NCBI GenBank assembly: GCA_035455205.1
Contig: DATIFM010000008.1
Location: forward strand, 13,146-77,145
Length of the DNA: 64,000 nucleotides
DNA from: Candidatus Bilamarchaeum sp.
Lineage (GTDB): Archaea; Micrarchaeota; Micrarchaeia; Anstonellales; Bilamarchaeaceae
Direction: 5' to 3'
A program made the translations under genes and the position numbers. The notes under the pieces are model-generated. The model was not told the DNA's origin. It worked only from the letters and a program-made list of their open reading frames with translations, and did no database searches. The stretch's first letter is position 1; every line of letters starts with the position of its first letter. Of this stretch, positions 32,762 through 46,753 are shown in pieces.

Positions 32762-32829
32762 CGCCAACCCGGAGGGGTTGGCCAAATAGAGGTCAGTGTC
32801 AACCCCAGCGGGGTTGACAAACTGACAGA

Positions 32830-33006
32830 TGCTCCTGCCGGGATTTGAACCCGGGTCCTCAGAGTTCTTCCGCCTTTTGGGAAAAGGCGGCCCAAAACTG
32901 ATTATTGGCGAACCCTCCGAGGGTTCGCAAACAGATAGTTTTTGGGCGCTTTTTCCAAAAAAGCGCTGAGAGTCTGATATCCTTGACCGGGCTAGACTAC
33001 AGGAGC
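32830..33006 (-). tRNA. tRNA-Glu (anticodon CUC, tentative) with a 102-nt intron in the anticodon loop (exons about 32967..33006 and 32830..32864)
   Basis: Sense strand GCTCCTGTAGTCTAGCCCGGTCAAGGATATCAGACTCTCA [intron] CTCTGAGGACCCGGGTTCAAATCCCGGCAGGAGCA. Acceptor stem 7 bp, T-arm CCGGG-TTCAAAT-CCCGG, anticodon stem TCAGA/TCTGA. The D-arm is irregular, so isotype and exact intron borders are tentative. TATA-like TTTAAAAA about 35 nt upstream. Confidence 0.65.
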
Positions 33007-33224
33007 TAATTAGCCGAGCTAATCTTGGGAATAAACGTTTTTAAACAAAGGTTATCCGCGCCCAAGGAGCTTCTTTATGCTCTCGGGCATCTTCCTGCAG
33101 GAGCAATTCTTCGCATGCCCCCGGTGCCACTTGATCCTCTGCTCCAATGTGGGGTTCTTCGGCATCTTGTTCTTCAAATGCCATTCGGCGTTCATGAGTA
33201 TAAGAGCGGGACAAAGAATAAATA

Positions 33225-37025: not shown

Positions 37026-38483
37026 ATGGATTTCAAGAGGCCTAATTTCACGAAAGTTTCGGATTACATCTGGGAAATAGGGACGGACTACAAGGAAGGG
37101 ATGAGGGTCCCGGCTAGGATTTACGCGAGCGAGTCAATCCTGAAGCAGATGGATTCGCACGTATACGACCAGATAACGAACGTCGCCACTTTGCCGGGCA
37201 TAGTGAAGCACGCATTGTGCATGCCGGACGGGCACAGCGGCTACGGCTTCCCCATCGGGGGCGTTGCAGCCATGGACGCGACCGAGGGCGTGATCAGCCC
37301 GGGAGGGATAGGCTTCGACATCAACTGCGGCATGAGGCTCATACTCACGAACCTGACACTGAAGGACGTCCAGCCGCATCTGAAGCAGCTTGTGAACAGG
37401 CTTTTCGAGCGCGTGCCAGCCGGCGTCGGGAGCAAGGGGTTCGTGAAGCTGGACGCCAACACGTTCCGCAGGGCGATAGAGGAAGGCGCCGAGTGGTGCG
37501 TGAAAGAGGGGTACGGCTGGAGCGACGACCTGGAAGTCACCGAGCTCAAGGGCCGCTTCGAGGGCGCGGACGAGAAGAAGGTCACGAACAGGGCTGTCGA
37601 AAGGGGGAAGGACCAGATAGGAACGCTCGGCTCGGGGAACCACTACCTCGAGATTCAGCATGTGCGGCCGGAGAACCTGATTGACAGGGCGCTCGCGAAG
37701 AAATGGGGCCTTTTCGAGGACCAGATAGTGATAATGTTCCACTGCGGCTCGCGGGGCTTCGGCCACCAGGTCGCGACAGACTACCTCAACGTTTTCCTGA
37801 ACGTCATGGAAAGCAAATACAAGATTAAGATACTCGACAGGGAGCTTGCATGCGCGCCGTTCAACTCGCCGGAGGGCCAGGACTATTTCTCGGCGATGAA
37901 GTGCGGCGTGAACATGAGCTTTGCCAACAGGCAGACCATCGTCCACCGCCTGCGGGAGGTGTTCTCGGAAGTCTTCAGGACCGACGCGGAAAAACTGGGC
38001 ATGAGGCAGGTCTACGATGTCGCCCACAACCGGGCGTCGCTGGAAAAGCACCTCGTGGATGGAGCATGGCGCGAAGTGATAGTCCACAGGAAGGGAGCCA
38101 CGGCGGCATACGGCCCCGGGAGCGAATACCTGATGGAGAGATACCGGGAGGACGGCCAGCCGGTCATAATCGGCGGGAGCATGGAAACGGGCTCCTATTT
38201 GCTTGCCGGGACGAAGGAAGGCGCCGCCACATGGTACACCACCGCGCACGGGAGCGGCAGGACGATGTCCCGTACGGAGGCCAAGAGGAGATGGAAGGGC
38301 GAGACGCTCCAGAAGGACATGGAGAAGAAGGGCATACTTGTCAAGAGCGTATCCTATGCCGGCCTCGCCGAGGAGGCCGGAGGGGCGTACAAGGACATAG
38401 ACGAAGTCATAAACGCCACGCACGAGGCGGGCATCTCGAGAAAAGTCGCCAAGCTGATTCCGATAGGGAACGTCAAGGGCTAG
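37026..38483 (+). CDS. rtcB: RNA-splicing ligase RtcB (tRNA exon ligase)
   Basis: RtcB hallmark segments GGIGFDINCGMRL, GSGNHYLEIQ, HCGSRGFGHQ, AHNRA, AHGSGR. Confidence 0.92.
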   Translation: MDFKRPNFTKVSDYIWEIGTDYKEGMRVPARIYASESILKQMDSHVYDQITNVATLPGIVKHALCMPDGHSGYGFPIGGVAAMDATEGVISPGGIGFDINCGMRLILTNLTLKDVQPHLKQLVNRLFERVPAGVGSKGFVKLDANTFRRAIEEGAEWCVKEGYGWSDDLEVTELKGRFEGADEKKVTNRAVERGKDQIGTLGSGNHYLEIQHVRPENLIDRALAKKWGLFEDQIVIMFHCGSRGFGHQVATDYLNVFLNVMESKYKIKILDRELACAPFNSPEGQDYFSAMKCGVNMSFANRQTIVHRLREVFSEVFRTDAEKLGMRQVYDVAHNRASLEKHLVDGAWREVIVHRKGATAAYGPGSEYLMERYREDGQPVIIGGSMETGSYLLAGTKEGAATWYTTAHGSGRTMSRTEAKRRWKGETLQKDMEKKGILVKSVSYAGLAEEAGGAYKDIDEVINATHEAGISRKVAKLIPIGNVKG

Positions 38484-40326: not shown

Positions 40327-40464
40327 TTTCGCGCGAAAGAAAATGCGGATGAACCGGAGCCCCGATGATTTGGATAATACCCAAGCTTATGAGGGGCCGA
40401 GGGGACTGGTTTTTGTCCACTGAAAAACCCATTCCGGGTTTTTGTGGACATCAGGGAGATACTG

Positions 40465-46579: not shown

Positions 46580-46704
46580 GCCTCGGTAGCTCAGTCGGTA
46601 GAGCGGCTGACTGTTATCTTTTGGGAATGAACAGCCCGTTTTGGGGCGCCTTTTCCCAAAAGGCGCACATCAGCAGGCCGGAAGTTCAAATCTTCCCCGG
46701 GGCG
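46580..46704 (+). tRNA. tRNA-Asn (anticodon GUU) with a 52-nt canonical-position intron (46617..46668)
   Basis: GCCTCGGTAGCTCAGTCGGTAGAGCGGCTGACTGTTA [intron] ATCAGCAGGCCGGAAGTTCAAATCTTCCCCGGGGCG. Clean cloverleaf: 7-bp acceptor, D-arm GCTC/GAGC, anticodon stem GCTGA/TCAGC, T-arm GGAAG-TTCAAAT-CTTCC; intron between positions 37 and 38. Confidence 0.8.
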
Positions 46705-46753
46705 TTTTGGTTTACTGGCCAACCCCGCAGGTTGGCAGAATTTGATTACTGGG

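Follow-up and report, generated by a model that had tools for sequence, protein, structure and literature searches.

The locus holds a tRNA-Glu(CUC) gene that is interrupted in its anticodon loop by a long intron. We refer to the whole stretch of DNA analysed here, 64,000 nt of one contig of a Candidatus Bilamarchaeum species, as the window. Run with introns allowed, ARAGORN finds on the minus strand of the window (32830-33006; G000:C8 c[45975,46151]) a 75-nt cloverleaf broken by a 102-nt intron at 32865-32966, in agreement with an earlier, sequence-only reading of this DNA that had proposed both the gene and the intron at these coordinates. That reading had called the D-arm irregular; the arm does contain two G-U pairs, but it forms a normal 4-bp stem that is conserved in orthologues. 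Across the genus, the exons of Glu(CUC) orthologues are identical to those of the window gene at 66-74 of 75 positions. The host genome, G000, measures 1.39 Mb at about 60% G+C and is 82% complete. Table 1 lists the parts of the gene together with related features in the window. An A/T-rich, TATA-like box occupies window 33038-33045 on the minus strand. It lies 32-39 nt ahead of the mature 5' end, as would suit an archaeal promoter followed by a short leader.

Table 1. Features of the tRNA-Glu(CUC) locus and related elements, in window coordinates
Feature	Position	Strand	Details
Whole tRNA-Glu(CUC) gene	32830..33006	-	177 nt, 75 nt when spliced; ARAGORN with introns allowed
5' exon, tRNA positions 1-37	32967..33006	-	anticodon CUC at window 32970-32968
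Intron, 102 nt, site 37/38	32865..32966	-	ARAGORN fixed mode; BHB geometry; fold z = -6.86
3' exon, tRNA positions 38-73	32830..32864	-	CCA not encoded
Central-helix 3' strand GAAG	32867..32870	-	pairs with tRNA positions 32-35 (32972-32969)
Inverted cassette (in tRNA sense, hairpin 1 and the C-A-rich strand after it)	32938..32966	+	covariance model R1, C8:46083-46111 (+), 31.5 bits
Hairpin 2, trailer-hairpin copy	32908..32928	-	21/21 identical to the 3'-flanking hairpins of two further tRNA genes (C33:1345, C24:10612)
Forward cassette (U-G-rich leader and hairpin 3)	32870..32898	-	covariance model R1, C8:46015-46043 (-), 47.7 bits
Trailer hairpin	32798..32818	-	11 nt after the tRNA-Glu(CUC) 3' end; second hairpin at 32763-32782
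RtcB tRNA-splicing ligase	37026..38483	+	Pfam PF01139, E = 5.9e-168; 4 kb from tRNA-Glu(CUC)
tRNA-Asn(GUU), 52-nt intron at 37/38 ending in a forward cassette	46580..46704	+	Rfam tRNA, 59 bits

The isotype and the exact splice borders, which the sequence-only reading had left for computational confirmation, are settled by the geometry of the bulge-helix-bulge (BHB) motif, which we laid out at 37/38 for 13 orthologous or paralogous Glu genes of the genus, all with their intron at this site. The 4-bp central helix forms between tRNA positions 32-35 and four intron bases, the ones immediately before the final two, and is flanked by a 3-nt bulge on either side. This helix is perfect in 11 of the 13 related genes and carries a single C-A mismatch in the window gene and in its closest relative, from genome G051. 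The motif sits exactly at the 37/38 borders of the window gene, and its 3' strand, which has the one mismatch against the CUCU of its own anticodon loop, would pair in full with the CUUU of tRNA-Glu(UUC). Beyond the second bulge the inner helix of the window gene runs for 8 consecutive pairs. When the pairing of intron ends is anchored at the bulges and left free in register, it extends over a mean of 5.1 consecutive pairs within an intron as against 1.7 across introns (2/10000 permutations, a value that is inflated by the relatedness of the sequences).

Both enzymes expected of protein-based splicing are encoded in the host: the RtcB ligase near the tRNA gene, and a splicing endonuclease of 391 aa that matches PDB 4FZ2, the epsilon2 enzyme of ARMAN-2, end to end (E = 1.9e-130). 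Together with an exon cloverleaf and a BHB of the relaxed form, they mark the intron as one that is probably spliced by proteins. A group I intron finds no support, as an Rfam search gave no group I match at E up to 10, and the intron measures 102 nt against the roughly 200 nt or more that such an element requires. Based on the sequence and the known enzymology of these proteins, we propose that in the precursor the intron ends pair beside the splice sites through the 8-pair inner helix, which could be extended into a rod, and that this pairing would set the outer helix (the anticodon stem), the first 3-nt bulge, the 4-bp central helix, the second 3-nt bulge and the inner helix. The epsilon2-type endonuclease would then cut at both bulges, and RtcB would join the exons.

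The intron is strongly structured, with a folding energy of -48.7 kcal/mol compared to -27.4 +/- 3.1 kcal/mol for shuffled sequences, none of which (0/200) folds as well. Its core hairpin motif occurs five times in the window against 0.27 occurrences expected. The three hairpins described from the sequence are present as written, and the three-hairpin fold is the RNAalifold consensus of nine related introns, with compensatory changes in 11 of 35 pairs; it is not, however, the minimum-energy fold of the window sequence, which is instead a single long rod, formed by pairing between hairpins 1 and 3, that prolongs the BHB inner helix. Once cloverleaf and BHB are included, the rod reaches -70.8 kcal/mol and the three-hairpin form -61.6 kcal/mol. 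Both forms fit the nine introns, with 88.6% of cells paired in the rod and 93.0% in the three-hairpin form. When the variable arms of the cassettes are compared in a fixed register, they pair at 5.3 of 10 positions within the same intron and at 6.1 of 10 between unrelated introns, a result that leaves room for the rod because the test was filtered for hairpin pairing and held to a rigid register. In our view the intron can switch between the two forms, and we infer that the splicing-competent state is the rod or, at the minimum, the first few of its pairs.

Two of the three hairpins belong to one repeat. Hairpin 3 and its leader make up a 29-nt palindromic cassette, of which hairpin 1 and the strand that follows it are an inverted copy. 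In 21 cassette copies, chosen for a covariation test with no requirement that their stems pair, 98.4% of stem cells are paired, and the four variable stem pairs hold 38 cells in which both bases have changed. The covariance model R1 finds about 40 copies in the genome, and by inspection about 25 of the 30 best lie inside tRNA genes, including genes with two or three introns and genes with D-loop introns. Beyond this genome, the cassette has matches in 10 of the 12 genomes sampled from the genus and in one sister genus (18 copies), with single matches elsewhere in the order; the public genomes that contain it are mostly Candidatus Micrarchaeota MAGs. Two forward cassettes on another contig (G000:C9:52480-52900, minus strand; C9:52603 and C9:52746) are intergenic, upstream of the start of an ORF, and the second is flanked by 8-nt complementary arms that may mark a BHB-type intron in the 5' leader. 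In the tRNA-Asn(GUU) gene of the window, the 5' end of the intron can form 8 bp with the loop and 3' arm of the cassette, in competition with the cassette's own hairpin.

Hairpin 2 comes from a second family, whose members commonly follow tRNA genes. The two trailer hairpins that it matches at every position, each next to another tRNA gene, resemble it also in the bases that precede the stem, and the G051 counterpart of hairpin 2 differs by compensatory changes. The family counts about 105 hairpins in the genome: 16 lie within the spans of tRNA genes (14 of these in introns), and 23 lie no more than 80 nt from a tRNA gene, mostly just 3' of it. Most tRNA genes of the genome, the Glu(CUC) gene among them, are followed by such a hairpin at about 10-15 nt, and the family also occurs elsewhere; it may represent a terminator, a processing signal or a REP-like element. 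Further copies in the window lie at 40423-40443 and 46718-46736.

The designed look that the sequence-only reading had seen in these hairpins is real, yet it reflects copies of two repeat families of the lineage. Nine introns of 96-102 nt, which reside in the tRNA genes for Glu(CUC), Glu(UUC), Asp(GUC), Thr(CGU) and Ala(CGC), share over their full length the order of inverted cassette, trailer-type hairpin and forward cassette, with a mean column identity of 81%. This composite build occupies site 37/38 of Glu(UUC), Thr(CGU) and Ala(CGC), and that of Asp(GUC) in another species. The two matches to R1 and this full-length alignment with the composite introns of other tRNAs identify the window intron as a member of a cassette-bearing intron family. 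An intron of this length and structure is indeed unusual for archaea in general, as had been remarked from the sequence, but it is typical within its own genome, because 26 of the 34 tRNA genes there carry introns, of 34-187 nt according to ARAGORN. The window intron is thus an ordinary member of an unusual, lineage-specific family. On contig C20 (G000:C20:45100-45420, minus strand), a whole composite consisting of an inverted cassette, a trailer-type hairpin and a degraded forward cassette sits shortly downstream of a tRNA gene, which has an intron of its own in the T-arm.

At the Glu(CUC) site itself, the 102-nt build is common to the window gene and G051 only, and other orthologues carry introns of 28, 53-55, 135, 151 and 178 nt with other inner parts. 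The shortest, in genome G004 (L162:101-203, G004:C7), consists of one cassette hairpin that serves as the inner helix of a perfect BHB and represents the minimal form of the family; the exons of this gene are 95% identical to those of the window gene, and its match to the Rfam tRNA model RF00005 reaches 52.9 bits. This series from 28 to 178 nt at one site illustrates how a minimal hairpin intron gains modules and grows.

The window intron points to a further process, the copying of whole introns between tRNA genes. It is 87% identical (89/102) to the Glu(UUC) introns of the same genome (contig C30) and of G019, while the exons of those Glu(UUC) genes agree with the exons of the window gene at only 58-59 of 75 positions. 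Its strand facing tRNA positions 32-35 is the strand found in all four UUC introns, where it pairs perfectly. Since the intron is this close to the Glu(UUC) intron and its splice strand fits the UUC rather than the CUC loop, copying between the isoacceptors is indicated; by itself the strand would say little, because the UUC-type strand differs by a single base from the CUC-type strand of some orthologues. A second case comes from genome G044, where a tRNA-Asp(GUC) gene (L017:1494-1669, minus strand; G044:C13) carries at 37/38 a 103-nt composite whose central-helix strand, read by hand, complements the loop of Glu(CUC) and is mismatched with that of its tRNA-Asp host; the tRNA-Asp of G000 apparently has a D-loop intron only. 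Judging from these comparisons, the 102-nt intron of Glu(CUC) in G000 and G051 was most likely copied from tRNA-Glu(UUC) before the two genomes split, and whole introns seem to be copied between tRNA genes in this lineage. With the cassette in the introns and, in at least two cases, a splice strand suited to a foreign anticodon loop, the donor, recipient and timing of single transfers can be read from the genomes of one genus. Gene conversion is a possible route, because donor and recipient share short runs of identical sequence around the site. The 82%-complete genome yielded no reverse transcriptase, Y1 transposase or TnpB that could explain the copying.

Our preferred reading, to which we give a probability of about 0.85, is that the locus is a functional Micrarchaeota (DPANN) tRNA-Glu(CUC) gene with a protein-spliced BHB intron at 37/38 that is built from cassettes and a trailer hairpin and was most likely copied from tRNA-Glu(UUC). 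What is new here is the assignment of isotype and borders, the composition from two repeat families, the series of intron sizes at a single site, the rod as an alternative to three hairpins, and the footprint of the donor. The C-A mismatch in the central helix counts against this explanation of the locus, and so does the fact that runs of T can terminate archaeal transcription; the intron contains a run of six T (window 32957-32962, minus strand), and its relatives have runs of four to seven.

We also put forward, as a tentative and rather unlikely extension, that the composite intron behaves as a non-autonomous mobile unit, with the splicing machinery itself serving to copy it intact from one tRNA gene to another. 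Such a unit would move by reverse splicing, or by trans-ligation through the endonuclease and RtcB, and would afterwards be copied back into DNA. If this were the case, the anticodon-complementary strand that the intron carries would be a molecular footprint of each transfer, and two cases fit: the UUC-type strand in Glu(CUC) of G000 and G051, and the Glu-type strand in tRNA-Asp of G044.

An improbable alternative is that a MITE- or REPIN-type DNA transposon of 102 bases landed in the gene; its cassettes would have spread as DNA through a transposase that recognises hairpins, and its status as an intron would be secondary. The intron is indeed a near-perfect inverted repeat around a hairpin, and there are copies outside mature tRNAs, namely the intergenic pair on C9, the composite 3' of a tRNA gene at C20:45197, and C34:4240. 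Against this, the best copies are concentrated in tRNA genes, which by our estimate make up about 0.5% of the genome, they sit where the BHB is preserved, and the minimal 28-nt orthologous intron is nothing but a cassette hairpin acting as BHB inner helix; the failure to find a Y1 transposase or TnpB in the 82%-complete genome weighs in the same direction. Bacterial REP and REPIN elements are short palindromes that form inverted doublets around a spacer, occur in many copies per genome and are mobilised by RAYT transposases. The cassettes resemble them in being short palindromes present in many copies, here too as an inverted doublet around a spacer, but differ in being concentrated in tRNA introns instead of intergenic DNA, and PF01797 (RAYT, Y1) is absent from the 82%-complete genome.

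It is quite unlikely that the family is maintained for a role of the excised intron, be it as a stable or circular RNA, as a guide RNA like that in the tRNA-Trp intron of Euryarchaeota, or as a protein-binding site. In favour of such a role, the stems of the hairpins covary and their loops are conserved, and the central hairpin shares its exact sequence with trailer hairpins at other tRNA genes, which suggests a shared binding factor. However, no Rfam family matches the intron above noise, direct reading reveals neither a C nor a D box, and no fixed intron product is conserved, because orthologous introns at the same site span 28-178 nt with different inner parts. The Euryarchaeota tRNA-Trp intron, a C/D box guide RNA of about 105 nt, is likewise long, structured and placed at 37/38 of an archaeal tRNA; besides having the boxes that the window intron lacks, it differs in its host tRNA, and the window intron belongs to a repeat family.

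A pseudogene inactivated by insertion is very improbable. Two observations would favour it: the mismatch in the central helix of the BHB, and the failure of default tRNA finders to detect the gene, which is missed by ARAGORN with default settings and by an Rfam gathering scan, while a permissive Rfam scan gives noise matches only (tmRNA, mascRNA and rox1), due to the T-arm and the hairpins. Against it stand the conservation of the exons across the genus, the presence of an intron and BHB at this site in every orthologue, the broad specificity of the encoded endonuclease, and the fact that no other Glu(CUC) gene was found in the assembly. Least credible is an amber-suppressor or pyrrolysine-type tRNA with the anticodon CUA: with free intron placement ARAGORN reports tRNA-Pyl(CUA) and lets the intron begin at gene position 39, two bases to the 5' side, whereas fixed at 37/38 it returns Glu(CUC), but we reject the Pyl call because the shifted borders form no BHB when the geometry is laid out by hand, because the same shift would give a different anticodon in each orthologue while 37/38 alone, given that their last intron bases differ, gives CUC in all, and because a mode that alters the anticodon in 9 of the genome's 32 tRNA genes is untrustworthy here. 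For the annotation of DPANN genomes, this means that standard tRNA finders overlook the gene or misassign its anticodon as CUA.

Split tRNA genes offer another comparison. In work by Randau and colleagues from 2005, tRNA genes of Nanoarchaeum equitans were reportedly found to be split, with the BHB built by pairing between a sequence that follows the 5' half and a complementary one that precedes the 3' half. The inverted and forward cassettes of the window gene pair in a similar way, and its 5' part ends in a trailer-type hairpin, but the gene is continuous. Separate transcription of the 3' half is unlikely because the trailer hairpin is separated from the forward cassette by only 9 nt, which contain no TATA-like box. 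We considered and dropped the idea that tRNA-Glu(CUC) is expressed as two halves, since that interval leaves no room for a promoter.

The closest precedent for the copying of introns is the transposition of tRNA introns in Thermoproteales, where families of transposed introns have been described (Fujishima et al. 2010, Mol Biol Evol 27:2233, per PMC4090602) and where the mechanism of transposition is unknown (PMC4090602). Both there and here, the data imply that introns were copied after the tRNA bodies had diverged. The present case differs in its host, which belongs to the Micrarchaeota, and in its introns, which are long (about 100-180 nt) and modular, combining a 29-nt cassette in two orientations with a tRNA-trailer hairpin; a further difference is the splice-site strand of the copied intron, which still matches the donor's anticodon loop. 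In the literature that we searched, we found no paper that links Micrarchaeota tRNA introns with a shared cassette. This lineage bears on the question of how archaea acquire their tRNA introns.

Within the phylum, Candidatus Micrarchaeum acidiphilum ARMAN-2 provides the nearest reference. According to the portion of PMC3239211 drawn on here, interruptions affect 56% of its tRNA genes and also fall at non-canonical sites, and its epsilon2 endonuclease, whose three-unit form is the subject of PDB 4FZ2 (PMC3488258), cuts both strict and relaxed BHB motifs. The two organisms are alike in having the same three-unit endonuclease, a majority of interrupted tRNA genes and an acceptance of relaxed BHB motifs, as far as that portion of the source describes ARMAN-2. 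They differ in that the introns assayed there are short, at 25 and 13 nt, and in that neither a shared cassette nor long composite introns are among the features described in the same portion of PMC3239211. The genome of the window also encodes a second endonuclease-like protein, of 165 aa (G000:C16:9034-9276; L044:1291-1785), with a PF01974 match of 37.5 bits; in an alignment to EndA of M. jannaschii its catalytic Tyr and His are replaced by His and Lys, and it is therefore probably a non-catalytic paralogue.
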